A stretch of DNA of 64,000 bases, taken from a virus. The notes under the pieces were generated by a model. That model was not told the origin of the DNA, made no database searches, and worked only from the letters and a program-made list of their open reading frames with translations. Of the stretch, positions 8,001 to 58,501 are shown piece after piece; the first letter of the stretch is position 1, and every line of letters starts with the position of its first letter. The stretch spans positions 115,179 through 179,178 of IMG/VR virus record IMGVR_UViG_3300020048_000017; one strand, 5' to 3'. The position numbers were made by a program, and so were the translations under genes.

Positions 8001-11000
8001 TAACAAGTCCATTAGAAATCCTTTCGAGCAAATCATTAAGCCTCGCCGAGATAAGTTTTTTAGATATCTCAAAGCCCTTTTCGTTAAAAGATTGGGTAGC
8101 CTCTTTGTCTTTAGGTTTGTCACCTGATATAAATTCGTTAGCACTTAATCTGGCTTCGAAAAGCTTATTACCAGCCTCAAAAGGGTTACCCTTCGATACC
8201 GCGCCCAGCCCACCAAATAAGTTGGCAGTATTGGATTTTCTTATTCTTTCAAGGCTCGCAAATAGCTTCTCCCTTACTTTAGTAAGACTGTCTTCTAAAT
8301 CTAAACCCGTCGAAGAAACTTGTTCTATAACTTCTGCTGTGCCAATTTGTTCTTCGTTAGAGGCATCTTCAACAACGGTCATTAAACCCTTTAAGCCTAT
8401 ATCCCCATTTTTAAAATCGGAAAAAAGATCGTTAATTCCCTTAACTCTTTCTTGCAATTCCTTTTGAGAAATTCTAGCTTCGCTTCCTGACTGACCAGCC
8501 TGACTTACTAGGCTTTCTTTTAAATTAAATGTTTTAGACCTAGCTTCGTTGATAGCTTCCGCTTTAGCAACAGCAGCCTCAACAAAACTATCAGCAACAG
8601 AGTTTGCTCCAGATTCGAAATTATTGGTAGCTCTGAAAGATTTTAAAGAAAATTCTCGGTCAGCATTATTATTTAAAATTTTTGCAGAAAGGCTAACTCC
8701 TTTAGAAAAGTCTTGCAGTTTTTCTTTAGCTACAACTACAGCTTTAGCAACATCGTTTTCAGCTTCTACCCTTCTTTGGTTTATCGCTAAAGTTTTAAGA
8801 TCGAGAGCTAAAGTTTCAGCAAGAATACCTTTGCTTTGACCTAACTTTTCAGACCATTCTGCAACAGTAGTCGCGGCATTATCCAGACCAAGGCCTTTCA
8901 ATAGATCTTCAAAAGAACCCCCTTCTTGTAAGAATTTGTCTACGACAGGTTCAGCAGATATTGCGTTACTTGGACCAACCCCCCTGATTAGTTCGGAAAT
9001 GATTTCAGAAGATGCGGAGTCGTAGCCGATACCTTTTAAATTTTCGTCCTTGCCACTAAATAATCTAGAGATTTTTGTAACTCCGTCTATCCTTTGGTCG
9101 TCCAAAGTTCTGAGCAAGGCTCCGAACTCCTTTTGAGAAACTGTTTTTCTAGAAGGATCGGAAATTTCTTCGAGAGCCTTTTGGAACTCGCTAAATTGAT
9201 CTATTCCTTTGTCAGTCTCCTCTTTTGTAAACTGTCTTTCACTAATTCCAATTACTTTATTGCGAAGACCATCGTCTTTTATTTCAAATAAAGATTCTAG
9301 GGATTTAGAGGTTAACTCTTGTATAGAAGAGGAGCTGGCCCCAGATTTAATAGCATCGTTAAGTTGATTTAAAGAAGTGATATATCCACGAACAGAATTA
9401 ACCACTTCGTTAGTTGAATTTGCTTCCTCTTGAGCTTCTCTTTTTAAAGTTTCTGCCGACTTACCTACAGTAGAGTTATAGTCAACCACTCCTTTTAGGG
9501 CAATTCCCAGACCGGCAGCAGCAGCAGCGATTAAGCCGATTTGGTTAGGGAATGTAGCAAAAATTGCAGTAGCGGTAGACAGGGAGTTTGTCCAAGTTTC
9601 TATTTTTTGTTGCCCACCTTCGTCCGCCTCTTTTTTTAAAGCCTCTCCAGCTAAGGGGATTAAGAAGGACGCTCCGAAAGCTCCCATTTGACCCCTTTGT
9701 AAAGCGGCTCCGTATTTTGCAGATCTTTGAGCTTTTAGTTCTTGGGCCTTTATTTTTTCCGATCTAAGGTCATTTCTACGATTTCTTTCTGCAATTCTGG
9801 AAGAAAGCGTGTCGTTATAACCCTGAGTGCCAAAAACTGGTCTATTAGGATCTATGTTACGAGTCTGCCTTGCAGCTTGTCTTTGTAAATCCTGATTAGT
9901 TTTAAAATCCTTACGAGCTTTTTCTAACTCCTCGGCATCGAGCTTAGCATTAATAGCATCAAGTTGTGCTTTTTTAGCTCTCTTCTTTCTCAAAACATCC
10001 TCTGGGTCATCGGGGGGTTTCGGAGGAACAGGCCCTTGCATACGACCTTCGTTAATAAGATCTTGCTCGACTTGTTTTTTAATAGCTTCGTTTTGAAGTT
10101 TTAATTCAGCCTTCTTTCTAGTCTCGTCATAAGTAAGAAGTCCCGTATTTGTAGGCGCGGCGGTTCCAGCGGCAATTTTAGCCTTAGCTCTTAAAGATTC
10201 GTTTCTCTTCTTGTCCGTTTCCTCTTGGGTAAACTTCTTAAGAAGAGCAGCTTCTTCTAGTCTAGAAGACCTTTTAGCCGTAACGGCTTTCAACCTAGCT
10301 TCGTATTCAGGTGTGCCCTTAGAGGTTAACGGTAATACCCCTCCAGACCTTTTAGATCTAGCAGCTTCGAAAGCTTTCTTAGCGGCTAATATGGGTTTTT
10401 TCTCTTCTCTGGTTCGTCTGCCAAGTTCAGTAGAAACAATTTTAGACTCTTTTGAAATTCTTTCTAAAGTTTTTGCGTTAGCTTTTTCTTTTCTAGCAAG
10501 GGTTTTAACGGTAGCGTCAAAAGTTTCTTTCTGCGCTAAGAGTTTTTCTTTTTTGGCTGGCTTAAGAGCATCTGTTTTAGTAAGATTACTTAACTCCATA
10601 AAAGAGTCTTGTTCTAATTGATTAGAAATAATAGACGCTTTTTTTCTAGCAGAAGCCAAAATCTTTTGGTTTCGCTTTAACTCTTTCGCCATTAATTTAT
10701 TAGCTTCAGAGTATTCTTTTAAATTTTTAGCAAGCCCAATAGTTTCCTTTTCTACTTTAATAATACCTTTAGGGCCTCTTAATGGAACGTTTCCACCAGC
10801 TAAATTAGGGGTAAATCCACCAGCAGAAACTCTAGATACATCACCAAGGAATTTTAAATTTTTAAGCCCCCCAACGCTTCTTAACATGTCTTTATTAAAG
10901 ACTGCGTCAGCACCAGATCCGTTATAATTTTTAATTATGTATTCATCGGTATTCGCTACAATAGTTTCTTTCCCCGCACCAGTGTTAAAACCTTTCACGA

Positions 11001-43598: not shown

Positions 43599-44353
43599 GT
43601 CGAATGTCTCGCTTTATTGAGCAGAGTAGGTGCCCATACTGTATGTCTGCAATTAGCCCTACTAATTATAGTGATTATCACAAAGGCGGAAAATGCACCC
43701 GAAGAACGACATATTATCAACAAATTCCCTTGACAATACAACAAATTATGCTAACATACTTTATGCAACCAACACAACAAACGCTAGAAGATGCCATTAA
43801 AGGTATCACAGAGGTCTTTCTTTCCGAGGAAGAAACATTTTCCATTTATGGAATCACACTCTCTTTGAGGGATTTGATCAACCAAGGGTGGATTCGAATT
43901 GACGGTCTAACAGCCGCAAGAAAACCTATCGACGCTGAAGATGATTCTTCGATGCTAGTGGATAGTCAGGAACTGCCTCATAGCTTGGTCCGCGAAACTT
44001 TTAACAGGCTTTATCAAAATGGAGATCTTGATTGCGCAGTCAATAGCAGAGGTAAGTTTACAACTTATGGAGATCCTTTCAAGGTCTATCCAGTTACGAA
44101 TGTTTCCCCTCCGACCACTCCCTACCCACAAGTAACCTCTCCGTTCGTTACCAAACCTTCCGTTGATGAACTGACCGACAAGATTGTTTCCTATCTTCAG
44201 AATAAGGGTGAAGCAACTCTTAAGCAAATTCAATCCCGCCTTAAAACTAAAGGCATCACCTGTAAGGATATCGGAGACGCTCTTAATAAAGTTTCTGAAG
44301 TTGTCCTTGAGGCAAAAAGCGATCTTTCTAAATTCGTAGCCAAAATTAAGTAA
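43595..44353 (+). CDS. Hypothetical protein with a C-terminal winged-helix-like domain; alternative leaderless start at 43763
   Basis: DELTDKIVSYLQNKGEATLKQIQSRL wHTH pattern; internal promoter at 43730. Confidence 0.6.
   Translation: MSRMSRFIEQSRCPYCMSAISPTNYSDYHKGGKCTRRTTYYQQIPLTIQQIMLTYFMQPTQQTLEDAIKGITEVFLSEEETFSIYGITLSLRDLINQGWIRIDGLTAARKPIDAEDDSSMLVDSQELPHSLVRETFNRLYQNGDLDCAVNSRGKFTTYGDPFKVYPVTNVSPPTTPYPQVTSPFVTKPSVDELTDKIVSYLQNKGEATLKQIQSRLKTKGITCKDIGDALNKVSEVVLEAKSDLSKFVAKIK
43730..43757 (+). promoter_or_regulatory. Early promoter TTGACA-N16-TAACAT
   Basis: In-frame ATG 5 nt after the -10 element. Confidence 0.65.
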
Positions 44354-45171: not shown

Positions 45172-45199
45172 TTGACAATCCCAACTTTAGGTGTATATT
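45172..45199 (+). promoter_or_regulatory. Early promoter TTGACA-N16-TATATT
   Basis: tRNA-Ala starts 5 nt after the -10 element. Confidence 0.75.
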
Positions 45200-45204
45200 C
45201 ATAC

Positions 45205-45277
45205 GGGTCTATAGCTTAATTGGTGAAGCGTCGGTTTTGCAAATCGAAGATTGCAAGTTCAAGTCTTGTTAGATCCA
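45205..45277 (+). tRNA. tRNA-Ala(TGC)
   Basis: Full cloverleaf, G3:U70 pair, A73. Confidence 0.9.
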
Positions 45278-48814: not shown

Positions 48815-49134
48815 TGATAATTGAAATTCCAGACTTTGATGAAATCGTTAACGTCAGATTTTTAGAACCTGTCTCAGTTGAGATTTGGCCTCACGGGTCT
48901 GAGGTGGATTACTATTGGGACTTTGGGATGCGGGATTTTCTGGACGAAGATTGGTTTATGCTTAAAGACTACAAATCAACTAAAGATAAAGTTATTAGAA
49001 TGTGCCAGTTCGATATAGCTCACGCATTCGGGCATATAGAAGAAGACCCAAATTACACGCACAAACATTGGGCTTTAAAAGGGTGGCTTAAGGATAGATT
49101 GAAATTTTACGAACCTGAGGAAGATTTCTCTTGA
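48814..49134 (+). CDS. Hypothetical protein
   Basis: TAATG coupling to the upstream gene. Confidence 0.55.
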   Translation: MIIEIPDFDEIVNVRFLEPVSVEIWPHGSEVDYYWDFGMRDFLDEDWFMLKDYKSTKDKVIRMCQFDIAHAFGHIEEDPNYTHKHWALKGWLKDRLKFYEPEEDFS

Positions 49135-49158
49135 CAATTCCAAATTCTAGTGTATAAT
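49131..49158 (+). promoter_or_regulatory. Early promoter TTGACA-N16-TATAAT of the Tyr-Phe-Arg tRNA operon
   Basis: Consensus hexamers. Confidence 0.8.
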
Positions 49159-49163
49159 ACAGT

Positions 49164-49193
49164 ATGACTTTCGTCCGATATCGATTTAGCTAA
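49164..49193 (+). CDS. Leaderless leader peptide MTFVRYRFS
   Basis: ATG 5 nt after the -10 element; followed by a hairpin at 49193-49219. Confidence 0.45.
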   Translation: MTFVRYRFS

Positions 49194-49224
49194 CTCAAGC
49201 GGGAACTTCTCGCTTGAGTATTTC

Positions 49225-49314
49225 GCGAGATGTTCCTTTCTGCGGATTGTAACCCCGCTGTCTTTAAATAAGTAAGGAAGTTGACGAGGGGCGCGATACC
49301 TCCATCTTGCACCA
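49225..49314 (+). tRNA. Non-canonical tRNA-Tyr(GTA) lacking a D arm
   Basis: Acceptor GCGAGAT/ATCTTGC, A73, CCA; anticodon arm GCGGA-TTGTAAC-CCCGC; TTCCTT/AAGGAA long-range pairing. Confidence 0.7.
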
Positions 49315-49323
49315 AATTTCAAA

Positions 49324-49401
49324 GGCTTCTTGGTGTAGTAGGTTGTTGCACGCGGGACTGAAAATCCCGAGGCTGGGGTTCGATTCCCTGAGTGGCCACC
49401 A
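49324..49401 (+). tRNA. tRNA-Phe(GAA)
   Basis: Cloverleaf, CGGGA-CTGAAAA-TCCCG, encoded CCA. Confidence 0.9.
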
Positions 49402-49409
49402 TTTTAAAA

Positions 49410-49494
49410 GAGTCCCTAAGCCTACCTCCGCTACGAACGGAGTCTCTTTAAACTAGGGCAAGGAAGAGTGCCAGTTCAATTCTGGGGGGACTTA
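49410..49494 (+). tRNA. Non-canonical tRNA-Arg(ACG) lacking a D arm
   Basis: Acceptor GAGTCCC/GGGACTT; CTCCG-CTACGAA-CGGAG; T arm CCAG-TTCAATT-CTGG; CCTA/TAGG long-range pairing. Confidence 0.7.
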
Positions 49495-49500
49495 TTTTTT

Positions 49501-49836
49501 ATGTATTTTCAATTCAGATCAAATCTTAAAGCTGCGGGTTCTAGAGAGTGGAGTTTCTTACTTTCTAGTAATCCGCGTTTTTTGTATTGGGTGTTTATCG
49601 ATAAAAACTTGATAGTCCCGTTGAGATTGGAGGCAATGTCAACCCTTATAAAAAGAGGACTACTTCAAGATAAACATTTAAGCAGAGTTTTGCACGTTTT
49701 AAAAGACGAGGATTGGGATATCAGAAGGTGGGGCTTATTAATTCTTTTTAAGCTTGGTAAGTTTTCGGGGCAGCTATCGAAAGATTCCGATTGGAAAGTT
49801 CGAAAATTCTCAGAATATCTCTTGACAAAAGTCTGA
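49501..49836 (+). CDS. Helical (HEAT-like) hypothetical protein
   Basis: Repeated DEDWDIRRW / KDSDWKVRKF motifs. Confidence 0.5.
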   Translation: MYFQFRSNLKAAGSREWSFLLSSNPRFLYWVFIDKNLIVPLRLEAMSTLIKRGLLQDKHLSRVLHVLKDEDWDIRRWGLLILFKLGKFSGQLSKDSDWKVRKFSEYLLTKV

Positions 49837-49849
49837 ATAGTGCTATAAT
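49822..49849 (+). promoter_or_regulatory. Early promoter TTGACA-N16-TATAAT (leaderless)
   Basis: ATG at 49855, 5 nt after the -10 element. Confidence 0.8.
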
Positions 49850-49854
49850 GCGAC

Positions 49855-50145
49855 ATGAGATTCAAGACAAGGGCAGATTACGCAAATCCAGATACTCGCA
49901 GAATGTTAGCAGAATTTCTGTCAAATACTATTGAAGGCCGCGATCACCCCGAAGTTCCATATAAGCCCAACGATAACGACGATTATTACTGGACCTTAGA
50001 CTCAAATAACAACTGGAAAGTCAAATTCTACCACGAAGATCCATATAGTTTTGAGATCATTCACCGTTACCAAGGCGGGGCTAATAAATATGAGGAAGCT
50101 TTGGCTGGGTGGTTGGAATATAAACTTGGAGTTGAAAGAGTATGA
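49855..50145 (+). CDS. Hypothetical protein
   Basis: 96-aa ORF behind a promoter. Confidence 0.65.
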   Translation: MRFKTRADYANPDTRRMLAEFLSNTIEGRDHPEVPYKPNDNDDYYWTLDSNNNWKVKFYHEDPYSFEIIHRYQGGANKYEEALAGWLEYKLGVERV

Positions 50146-51706: not shown

Positions 51707-51734
51707 TTGACATTCTTCAAAAATCGTGTATACT
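51707..51734 (+). promoter_or_regulatory. Early promoter TTGACA-N16-TATACT
   Basis: tRNA-Met starts 5 nt after the -10 element. Confidence 0.8.
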
Positions 51735-51739
51735 TTTCT

Positions 51740-51811
51740 TGCGGGGTGTAGCAGTGGTAGCTAAACTCCCTCATAAGGAGAAGGTCCCGAGTTCGATCCT
51801 CGGTCCCGCAA
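51740..51811 (+). tRNA. tRNA with CAT anticodon (Met; Ile2 not excluded)
   Basis: Cloverleaf with an initiator-like body but no three G-C pairs in the anticodon stem. Confidence 0.85.
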
Positions 51812-54343: not shown

Positions 54344-54507
54344 AAGATCAATGGATTAAATTCTGTTGTTGGTTAGGTTTCCATAAACTAGGACCTTCAT
54401 ACTCTTCCAAAATCGAGATCTTGGAAGCTGAGAGAGGGACTTCCACCTTCAGTTCGGAGAGATTGTGTGTATTGCAGAGCAACTGTCTTCTGCGGACTTT
54501 CGAATGA
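54340..54507 (+). CDS. 55-aa Cys/His-containing small protein
   Basis: MKDQWIKFCCWLGFHKLG...; ATGA overlaps on both sides; below the ORF-track cutoff. Confidence 0.5.
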   Translation: MKDQWIKFCCWLGFHKLGPSYSSKIEILEAERGTSTFSSERLCVLQSNCLLRTFE

Positions 54508-55493
54508 AACTTTTAAATAGAGACTCCTTCAGAGAATCAGTGTTCTCTCGGGATGGTAAGTGCGTCTGGTGCGGAAATCCTTACCAAGATGCTCATCATT
54601 TAATTGAGCGCCGATTATTCGAAGACGGGGGTTACTATCTAGATAACGGAGTTAGTTTATGCGGTCCATGCCACTTAAAGGCTGAATCTACAGAAATAAG
54701 CCCTAAAGAGCTTCGCCTAGCAGCAGGTATCAATACTATCGTTTTACCTGAGCATCTAGCTGCGAACACGGACTACGATAAGTGGGGCAATCAAATTATC
54801 GGCAATTATAGAATCAAAGGGGAGCTTTTTGATGACGAATCTGTGCAGAAGGTTATTAAAGACTTTACACACTTGTTTATTGACAGAATTAAGTATCCCA
54901 GAACCTTCCACTTACCTTGGTCTAAAACTAGTGGTGACGACAAAAGGCTTCAAGACACTTCTTGTTTCGAAGGAGTTGAAGTTGTAGTCTTGGAAAAGAT
55001 GGACGGCGAAAATACCACCATTTACAAAGACTGCATTCACGCGAGGTCCGTAAATAGCAAAGTGAACGCAACTCGCTCTTGGGTTGCTCAGCTACAAGCT
55101 AATATCGCAGACTCAATTCCTGAGGGTTTTAGAATCTGTGGGGAGAATTTATTTGCGCGACATACCGTTCCTTACGAGGAATTAGAATCGTACTTTTTAG
55201 TTTTTAGCATTTGGGACGGCATGAAATGTTTGTCTTGGAAAGACACTAAAGAATATTGTGACCTATTAGGATTAAAGACTGTTCCAGAAATCTTTGAAGG
55301 AACTTTTACTGAAGATATTAAAAACCTAAAAGTTAGAGAAGACCAAGAAGGTTATGTAGTTCGAAAATCGGGCGAGTTCTATTATAAGGACTTTAAAACA
55401 AGTGTCGCGAAATACGTTTCTCCGACATTTATTATTCCGGACGAACACTGGACTGAAGGACCTCTGGTAAAAAATCAACTCAAGAAAATATGA
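54504..55493 (+). CDS. HNH-domain / RNA ligase (Rnl2-like) fusion
   Basis: CVWC...AHHLIER...NGVSLCGPCH; KYPRTFHL, EKMDGENTT (KxDG), GENL, EGYVVR, AKYV. Confidence 0.82.
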   Translation: MKLLNRDSFRESVFSRDGKCVWCGNPYQDAHHLIERRLFEDGGYYLDNGVSLCGPCHLKAESTEISPKELRLAAGINTIVLPEHLAANTDYDKWGNQIIGNYRIKGELFDDESVQKVIKDFTHLFIDRIKYPRTFHLPWSKTSGDDKRLQDTSCFEGVEVVVLEKMDGENTTIYKDCIHARSVNSKVNATRSWVAQLQANIADSIPEGFRICGENLFARHTVPYEELESYFLVFSIWDGMKCLSWKDTKEYCDLLGLKTVPEIFEGTFTEDIKNLKVREDQEGYVVRKSGEFYYKDFKTSVAKYVSPTFIIPDEHWTEGPLVKNQLKKI

Positions 55494-55857: not shown

Positions 55858-55885
55858 TTGACAAATTTCACATTTCAGTTATACT
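55858..55885 (+). promoter_or_regulatory. Early promoter TTGACA-N16-TATACT
   Basis: Second tandem promoter. Confidence 0.75.
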
Positions 55886-55907
55886 ACTGTATTCAATTTT
55901 ACTTCAC

Positions 55908-56057
55908 ATGAAGCCAGATACCAACATCACACATTCCAGTAATCCCTCGGGGAACGGAATCGTCGTGCTCAAACCGTAAATTAACGGGGTATCTAGAAAA
56001 GTCCTAATCAGGCATCAATAAAATCTACGATACCCTACAACATAGGAGGATTTTATT
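55908..56057 (+). promoter_or_regulatory. Attenuator-like leader: 23-aa peptide MKPDTNITHSSNPSGNGIVVLKP (55908-55979) plus alternative helices
   Basis: AGATACC/GGTATCT, GGGTATCTAG/CTACGATACCC and CCTA/TAGG with AATAAAATCT/GGATTTTATT are mutually exclusive pairings. Confidence 0.55.
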
Positions 56058-56076
56058 ACAATTTAAAAAAACAAAA

Positions 56077-58135: not shown

Positions 58136-58163
58136 TTGACAAAATCCCAGCTTGTGCTATAAT
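58136..58163 (+). promoter_or_regulatory. Early promoter TTGACA-N16-TATAAT (leaderless)
   Basis: ATG at 58169, 5 nt after the -10 element. Confidence 0.8.
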
Positions 58164-58168
58164 GGGTC

Positions 58169-58501
58169 ATGCACAAATTCAAACTTATTGCGGTCGCCGT
58201 TGCGATCCTATCGACCCTTCTCGGAATTCTGACGTTTCCTTACTGGTCAGCCGAAACAATTTCTATCACGGTAACGGACAAGGAGCGGGCTCCATCTAAT
58301 AAAGGTGGTTTTTACATGGTGTTTTCTAAAGAGGAAACTCTTCGTAACGAAGACGTTCGTCGTTACCTTAAGTTCAATTCATCTGACCTTCAAGGAAAAC
58401 TTGAGATCGGGAAAACTTATAAAGTTAAAGTATACGGCTGGAGAGTCCCAATGTTTTCTAAATACCGCAATCTAGTTAAAGTTTATGAAAATAGTAAATA
58501 A
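58169..58501 (+). CDS. Membrane-anchored OB-like phage protein (DUF1523-like)
   Basis: N-terminal TM; TVTDKER...FNSSDLQGKL...YGWRVP. Confidence 0.6.
   Translation: MHKFKLIAVAVAILSTLLGILTFPYWSAETISITVTDKERAPSNKGGFYMVFSKEETLRNEDVRRYLKFNSSDLQGKLEIGKTYKVKVYGWRVPMFSKYRNLVKVYENSK

Follow-up and report, generated by a model that had tools for sequence, protein, structure and literature searches.

A predicted leaderless mini-ORF rich in Phe, Tyr and Arg codons before a phage tRNA operon: a candidate codon-sensing leader with a two-state RNA read-out

Why phages carry tRNA genes, and how these genes are controlled, is an old open question. It is raised in a concrete form by a locus of an uncultured phage in which a nine-codon open reading frame (ORF) and a hairpin precede three RNAs with Tyr, Phe and Arg anticodons. 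The window analyzed here is the final 64 kb of the 179,178-bp IMG/VR virus record IMGVR_UViG_3300020048_000017, a record with direct terminal repeats. The initial annotation of this DNA proposed that the mini-ORF spells out the tRNAs of its own operon and that the adjoining hairpin acts as an attenuator. Both proposals were examined by comparison with related sequences and by RNA folding. The elements of the locus are as follows.

49131 to 49158, plus strand: sigma-70-type consensus promoter (TTGACA, 16-nt spacer, TATAAT; 12 of 12 matches), with predicted +1 at 49164
49164 to 49193, plus strand: predicted leaderless mini-ORF of 9 sense codons and TAA (49191-49193), encoding MTFVRYRFS; the codons proposed to be regulatory are those for Phe at positions 3 and 8, for Tyr at 6, and for Arg at 5 and 7 (CGA in both cases)
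49193 to 49219, plus strand: leader hairpin 1:2, with arms 49193-49204 and 49208-49219, adjoining the stop codon
49201 to 49237, plus strand: alternative hairpin 2:3, pairing 49201-49206 with 49232-49237 and 49208-49213 with 49225-49230
49225 to 49314, plus strand: Tyr(GUA) tRNA-like RNA lacking a D hairpin; its ACCA 3' end is encoded, and it comes first among the RNA products of the transcript
49324 to 49401, plus strand: canonical tRNA-Phe(GAA), called by ARAGORN and by Rfam RF00005 (53.8 bits)
49410 to 49494, plus strand: Arg(ACG) tRNA-like RNA lacking a D hairpin; no relative shows a change in its anticodon loop
49501 to 49836, plus strand: 111-aa ORF starting 6 nt past the Arg-like RNA and lacking a promoter of its own

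Judged from this arrangement, the 111-aa ORF probably lies on the same transcript as the tRNA operon, the next consensus promoter being found at 49822.

Relatives of the locus were reached via protein neighbors and are all metagenomic contigs: L003 (L004 and L005 have the same sequence), L007, L011 and L012. A DNA search of cultured phages with 801 nt of the locus gave zero matches. The terminase relatives among cultured phages are at most 26% identical, and therefore no cultured relative was available for comparison. Exact-pattern scans of IMG/VR, from which the window's own record may have been withheld, gave no hits with patterns taken from the hairpin, the Arg-like RNA or the mini-ORF (two forms); a scan of prokaryote genomes for the promoter followed by the mini-ORF gave none either. 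Among more distant homologues of the neighboring deoxyribosyltransferase (L013-L021), both synteny and the leader are absent wherever DNA was available.

The start of the transcript is predicted from a promoter of a kind that is common in this phage. The -35 box TTGACA (49131-49136) and the -10 box TATAAT (49153-49158) are separated by 16 nt, and a further 5 nt lead to the ATG at 49164, as originally described. Approximately 65 near-perfect TTGACA-N16-TATAnT promoters occur genome-wide, with examples in the window at 49822-49857, 58136-58171 and 43730-43765. At 37 promoters of the genome an ATG stands exactly 5 nt past the -10 box; 36 of these open ORFs of at least 37 aa (median 97), and the nine-codon mini-ORF is the sole short case. 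Its predicted +1 thus falls on the ATG itself, 5 nt past a consensus -10 box, as for the 36 longer ORFs. The tRNA-Ala gene begins at the same promoter distance as the mini-ORF ATG and the tRNA-Met gene within a nucleotide of it, as expected if transcription starts there. Analogy with these other promoters of the genome makes the ATG of the mini-ORF a plausible start, the start site itself being predicted. Promoter and ATG are found at the identical place in L003, L007, L011 and L012. More generally, the promoter pattern suggests that the phage appears to run largely on leaderless transcripts, and most of its early genes seem to be expressed as leaderless mRNAs. At the promoters of the Ala (45172-45205) and Met (51707-51741) tRNAs, the tRNA 5' end lies at or within a nucleotide of the predicted +1; tRNAs starting there would require no RNase P removal of a 5' leader.

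The codon content of the mini-ORF agrees with the RNAs that it precedes. The earlier count of five of eight codons matching the downstream tRNAs (TTC, TTT, TAT and CGA twice) is correct: five of the eight codons after the ATG fall within the set TTY, TAY and CGT/CGC/CGA (binomial P 0.0005-0.0013), and among 892 short ORFs of the genome, 3 attain a share this high. In L007, seven of ten codons belong to the Phe/Tyr/Arg set (P ~1e-5 to 5e-5). The conserved residue types, Phe, Tyr and Arg, are those of the three downstream anticodons, with a chance of 1 in 1140 for a random trio. These figures for codon enrichment and trio match are post hoc, and independent backing comes from conservation. The peptides of the window and its relatives are given below.

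Window and L011: MTFVRYRFS
L003: MTFNRYRFR
L012: MNFRRYRFR
L007: MIFIRYRYRFM

Thus, the mini-ORF is kept in four sequence variants in five contigs, always with its start at the predicted +1 and its stop beside the hairpin. Comparison of ORF codons with operon tRNAs across related phages, the check proposed at the outset, showed the Phe, Tyr and Arg codons retained in all four variants. Only two of the 15 alignment columns of these codons are variable, both at third positions and both synonymous, whereas six of the nine columns of the other three sense codons vary and the amino acid is altered at each of these codons. The contrast in variable columns gives a Fisher P of 0.02, for four variants from one fairly narrow lineage. 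The length difference of L007 results from a 6-nt in-frame insertion that brings in a further Tyr codon and a further Arg codon, both from this set. In the same contig the stop codon is changed from TAA to TGA, and the distance between stop and hairpin is held at 0-2 nt in all lineages, even with the ORF two codons longer. The conserved Arg positions use CGA or CGT exclusively, which account for 10% and 9% of the Arg codons of the phage, versus 44% for AGA; AGA and CGG are confined to the freely varying positions of the mini-ORF.

Regulatory codons of a translated leader would be expected to leave just such a substitution pattern, which an RNA motif alone could hardly produce. As in trpL, a short leader ORF is enriched in codons cognate to the product of the operon, its translation being predicted. 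The comparative data accordingly favor one half of the original proposal, a codon-sensing leader matched to the tRNAs of its own operon, and a codon-sensing leader is the likely reading of the aligned sequences; the other half, the hairpin as an attenuator-terminator, was not supported. Some constraint could also act on DNA or RNA, since an 8-bp palindrome inside the mini-ORF (49176-49183) is invariant. Its role as a repeated operator was ruled out by its genome count (3 copies versus 2.3 expected).

Hairpin 1:2 has 12 bp, including one G-U, and a 3-nt loop; the final A of the stop codon takes part in the first pair. The hairpin folds at -18.2 kcal/mol (z = -7.8 relative to shuffled sequences). 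That a 12-bp hairpin adjoins the stop and is followed by ATTT holds as first reported. A post-stop hairpin is present in every lineage, with sequences in L003 and L012 that differ from that of the window. What follows it in the window is ATTTC, not a U-tract, and a terminator scan of 49193-49224 called no terminator. Three T residues follow the hairpin in the window, L011 and L007, and L012 and L003 have no T-run. More broadly, U-tracts are absent after both 1:2 and 2:3 in L012 and L003, and after 2:3 in L007. Hairpin 2:3 was likewise rejected as a terminator, its TTTCT tail being confined to the window and L011. The leader thus lacks the intrinsic terminator with U-tract of the trpL type. A search of the leader against Rfam at E<=10 gave zero matches, T-box included.

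The three RNAs downstream are all real, as the initial annotation had it, but tRNA-Phe alone is of the standard kind; the RNAs for Tyr and Arg are D-arm-less. Neither of these two was called by ARAGORN (default or relaxed) or by Rfam RF00005 at E<=10. They depart from the canonical cloverleaf, with only 9-10 nt between the acceptor and anticodon stems. In the Tyr element, an acceptor stem of 8 bp is combined with a GUA anticodon loop and a T-type hairpin; the ACCA end is encoded, and the consensus fold contains 22 pairs, 11 of them with compensatory double changes. The Arg element carries ACG in its anticodon loop and shows covariation in three helices: the anticodon stem, the T stem, and a helix that the short D strand forms with the variable loop. 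It was found in L003, L011, L012 and L019; the L019 copy ends in CCA. Acceptor stem, 7-nt loop with U33 and purine 37, T-type hairpin, CCA and covariation together mark both elements as tRNA-like, and the alignments indicate that they are real structured D-arm-less RNAs.

Several side observations concern these genes. The Arg-like RNA is ~94% identical between the window (49410-49500) and L003 (11045-11135), and the adjacent tRNA-Phe only ~70%; two L003 changes break acceptor pairs of the Arg-like RNA, and the constraint on its body is unusual. In L007, the tRNA after the Tyr-like RNA (905-963) has the anticodon loop AAA rather than GAA, an uncertain call in a low-coverage contig that ends inside the gene. 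L003 has a canonical class II tRNA-Tyr(GTA) in the corresponding place instead of the D-arm-less RNA (L003:10461-11033), with a PDDEXK_5 ORF (10546-10938) between the Tyr and Phe genes; from this gene order, the replacement looks like a mobile-endonuclease-associated event. D-arm-less Arg or Tyr RNAs also occur without a leader ORF in more distant phages (L019:2425-2515 and L022:1185-1275, minus strand), and the leader is therefore an add-on of this lineage.

The leader hairpin and the first of these RNAs are connected by the alternative hairpin 2:3. In it, the 5' acceptor strand of the Tyr RNA, over its full length, and the strand that follows are paired with the loop and 3' arm of hairpin 1:2. 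Its formation is incompatible with hairpin 1:2 and, within the Tyr tRNA-like RNA, with the acceptor stem and the helix after it. Calculated energies of the two hairpins are as follows.

Window: 1:2, -18.2 kcal/mol; 2:3, -17.2 kcal/mol
L007: 1:2, -15.0 kcal/mol; 2:3, -15.2 kcal/mol
L012: 1:2, -19.2 kcal/mol; 2:3, -20.1 kcal/mol
L003: 1:2, -17.2 kcal/mol; 2:3, -14.9 kcal/mol

Two mutually exclusive structures that share a strand are thus near iso-energetic in four lineages and, as in trpL, are predicted in silico to be set by the position of the ribosome. An equivalent alternative hairpin is present in L011 too. The z-scores of hairpin 2:3 range from -2.7 to -4.9 across lineages; for the window z is -4.9, and none of 200 shuffled sequences was as good. 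The hairpin is weakest in L003, where 5 of 200 shuffles were as good; in that contig segment 3 belongs to a plain hairpin that precedes the tRNA, and the canonical tRNA-Tyr follows 45 nt beyond. The paired sequences differ between lineages, and therefore segments 1, 2 and 3 (the acceptor 5' strand) have changed together with the acceptor 3' strand. Hairpin 2:3 was assessed by per-sequence folds and not by column-wise pair counts, because its helices slip by one register in the MAFFT alignment.

With nt 1-37 masked, corresponding to the footprint of a terminating ribosome, the minimum free energy (MFE) structure is hairpin 2:3 in every lineage. With a mask ending at nt 31, as for a ribosome further upstream, full-length transcripts retain hairpin 1:2 and the tRNA fold. 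Without a ribosome, hairpin 1:2 plus the folded tRNA is optimal in the window by ~10 kcal/mol. Within this folding model, sequestration of the acceptor strand by the alternative hairpin is a predicted property of the lineages carrying a D-arm-less Tyr tRNA.

The spacing of codons and hairpin bears on which ribosomes could act on this equilibrium. Distances from the A site to the hairpin are 14-23 nt for Phe3, Arg5 and Tyr6, 11 nt for Arg7, 8 nt for Phe8 and 2 nt for the stop codon, and a ribosome unwinds roughly 9-11 nt beyond its A-site codon. Therefore, only a ribosome that finishes the ORF is expected to open most of hairpin 1:2. This differs from trpL, in which a stalled ribosome covers segment 1; here the codons lie 8-23 nt upstream and only the terminating ribosome covers that segment. 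The polarity of the regulation was at first considered unreadable from sequence, but the placement of the alternative hairpin on the Tyr acceptor strand makes it readable by inference.

We consider it quite possible, although somewhat short of probable, that the translated leaderless mini-ORF senses the decoding of Phe, Tyr and Arg codons and that a two-state RNA, not a terminator, serves as the read-out in a negative feedback. In this model the Phe (TTY), Tyr (TAY) and Arg (CGA/CGT) codons would gauge decoding served by Tyr-GUA, Phe-GAA and Arg-ACG (read as ICG). When these tRNAs are plentiful, a fast ribosome would reach the stop codon and unwind most of hairpin 1:2; hairpin 2:3 could then arise while the 3' half of the tRNA has yet to be transcribed, and the acceptor stem would stay unclosed and the tRNA unmatured. 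When they are scarce, a ribosome waiting at a Phe, Tyr or Arg codon for its tRNA would halt before the hairpin, and absence of a ribosome would have the same effect. Hairpin 1:2 would be preserved, and the tRNA would fold and be processed. The net result would be more maturation of the phage tRNAs under scarcity of the same tRNAs, and the phage would probably tune tRNA maturation to the speed of ribosome decoding at those codons. The start site, translation, timing, polarity, maturation as the regulated step and the unmatured state of the trapped precursor all enter the model as inferred terms.

The model has weak points of its own. The switch directly touches the Tyr RNA alone, and conservation of the Phe and Arg codons needs an extra assumption, for instance about what becomes of the entire precursor. 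At Phe8, a stalled ribosome would itself unwind 2-4 bp of hairpin 1:2, leaving the polarity unclean for that codon. The trapped state is ~10 kcal/mol less stable in the window and the effect must therefore be kinetic, which requires ribosomes to load in the 2-4 s that transcription of 150 nt takes. In addition, segment 3 of L003 lies outside any tRNA, and the more distant phages do without a leader ORF for their D-arm-less Tyr or Arg RNAs.

The main alternative, which we rate as unlikely, is an untranslated leader whose hairpins serve co-transcriptional folding, 5'-end protection or RNase processing, with the ATG supplied by the promoter cassette and the ORF incidental. A stop within nine codons of an ATG is expected in ~45% of cases as calculated from sequence composition, the other tRNA promoters of the phage have no ORF at all, and distant relatives carry the same tRNA-like RNAs without the mini-ORF. 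The invariant palindrome, together with a 14-nt near-identity in three variants, could also represent an RNA or DNA motif. Such a leader leaves unexplained why changes in the Phe, Tyr and Arg codons are all synonymous next to scrambled codons, why the insertion is in frame and consists of two codons of the same set, and why a stop was replaced by a stop at a constant hairpin distance. The conserved residues also coincide with the three downstream anticodons, and the palindrome is not a repeated operator. A translated sensor with some other output or polarity is also unlikely in our judgment, about as much so as the untranslated leader: late stalls at Arg or Phe might drive hairpin 2:3, or the two states might direct RNase cleavage, Rho or how stable the entire precursor is, with its Phe and Arg RNAs and its 111-aa ORF. 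It would accommodate the finding that with 31 nt masked hairpin 2:3 is already the MFE structure of short nascent transcripts in three lineages, as well as the persistence of the switch in L003, whose segment 3 falls outside the tRNA; that Phe and Arg codons are conserved also suggests control beyond the Tyr RNA. However, at four of the five regulatory codons a stalled ribosome would be too distant to touch the hairpin, the conserved spacer of one codon and the stop place only a terminating ribosome on it, and sequestration of an acceptor strand can only be unproductive for that tRNA.

Classical transcription attenuation, in which hairpin 1:2 and ATTT form an intrinsic terminator dependent on the ribosome of the leader ORF, is the reading that the initial annotation had attached to the hairpin, and we regard it as very improbable. 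It draws on a GC-rich 12-bp hairpin directly after a leader ORF and on the three T residues in the window, L011 and L007. Against it, the hairpin went uncalled in the terminator scan, the T tail is not conserved, no lineage has a U-tract, and the conserved alternative partner is a tRNA acceptor strand and not an antiterminator upstream of a terminator. The sign of the feedback would also be wrong: a ribosome stalled upstream leaves the hairpin intact and with this geometry favors termination, so a terminator would lower tRNA output just when tRNAs are scarce. Least credible of all is that the nine-residue aromatic and cationic peptide is itself a product or an arrest peptide and matches the tRNAs by coincidence. 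Very short cis-acting leader peptides are known from the cat and erm leaders, Arg-Tyr-Arg resembles the positive-X-positive stalling motif of macrolide-dependent leader peptides, and the core Phe-x-Arg-Tyr-Arg-Phe is conserved at the amino acid level. The anticodon match would then have to be a chance event of the rarity given above. Moreover, rare CGA and CGT are retained at the conserved Arg positions although AGA is usual in the phage, which points to codon identity and not residue identity.

When compared with known systems, the proposed ribosome-actuated switch shares most with the attenuators of amino acid operons. Like trpL, pheL, hisL, thrL and ilvL (PMC1183508, PMC3082878), it has a very short leader ORF rich in codons cognate to what the operon supplies, and as in thrL and ilvL (PMC1183508, PMC3082878) several amino acids are sampled at once. 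In both cases ribosome position would select between mutually exclusive hairpins. However, those attenuators control biosynthetic enzymes and this locus tRNAs, and in contrast to them it is predicted to be leaderless and has neither a Shine-Dalgarno sequence nor a U-tract terminator. The regulatory codons lie inside segment 1 in amino acid operon attenuators but upstream of it here, and the position of their 3:4 hairpin is taken by a tRNA acceptor stem, so that the output would be RNA folding and maturation and not termination. A similar likeness exists to the translational attenuation of ermC, cat and cmlA, where a ribosome on the leader peptide remodels alternative hairpins and hides or exposes an RNA segment without termination; there, a ribosome-binding site is hidden and the stall is induced by a drug, whereas here the segment would be the Tyr 5' acceptor strand and the stall would reflect tRNA supply. 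The synthetic RNase P riboswitch also uses an upstream element with two pairings around a tRNA 5' end and controls 5' maturation, although it is designed, ligand-driven and sequesters a single-stranded leader, while the present element would be natural, ribosome-driven and directed at the acceptor strand (PMC7897497). T-box riboswitches are alike in coupling expression to the state of a specific tRNA via alternative RNA structures. They differ in that uncharged tRNA is bound directly, independently of any translation, and in their targets, which are aminoacyl-tRNA synthetase genes and genes related to them. In the open-access literature, no natural case of a leader peptide controlling tRNA genes was found, although absence there is not proof.

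Two further elements of the genome were noted in this context. At 54465-55493, in the tRNA region and ~5 kb downstream of the leader locus, a gene encodes a protein of 342 aa that matches HNH at its N terminus and, strongly, RNA ligase (phrog_24030, 6.6e-110). Its placement inside the tRNA region suggests possible tRNA repair and fits a phage dealing with tRNA damage. Together with published work on phage tRNAs and defenses that target tRNAs (PMC10264068, PMC11555353), it provides context, and no more than that, for the possible link to host anticodon nucleases raised in the initial annotation. The leader before the tRNA-Pro array (55885-56060, promoter 55858) is 100% identical to L003 over ~150 nt, with flanks at ~80%; it contains a 23-codon ORF that is not leaderless, and it behaves like a conserved structured RNA. 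It was rejected as an independent test, since its complete identity to L003 makes it uninformative on codon-level selection.

Phage tRNAs can rescue infection when host defenses destroy specific tRNAs (PMC10264068, PMC11555353, PMC11464382). In its full form, which we advance only tentatively, our proposal is that of a natural switch in which the decoding speed of a mini-ORF, without any stop to transcription, decides whether the first, non-canonical tRNA closes its acceptor stem and matures; the phage would thereby autoregulate its tRNA supply, and its tRNAs may replace host tRNAs lost to defense nucleases. If true, the leader ORF would be a built-in gauge of tRNA sufficiency that samples the codons of its own operon's tRNAs, and it would be the first findable case of leader-peptide control applied to tRNA genes. 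Approximately 75 nt would hold both the sensor and a two-state switch aimed at the tRNA's own acceptor strand. An output at the level of folding and maturation would follow a principle so far known to be realized only in synthetic RNase P riboswitches (PMC7897497). The locus also links three unusual traits of one phage, namely its apparently pervasive leaderless expression, tRNAs predicted to start at +1, and D-arm-less tRNAs.
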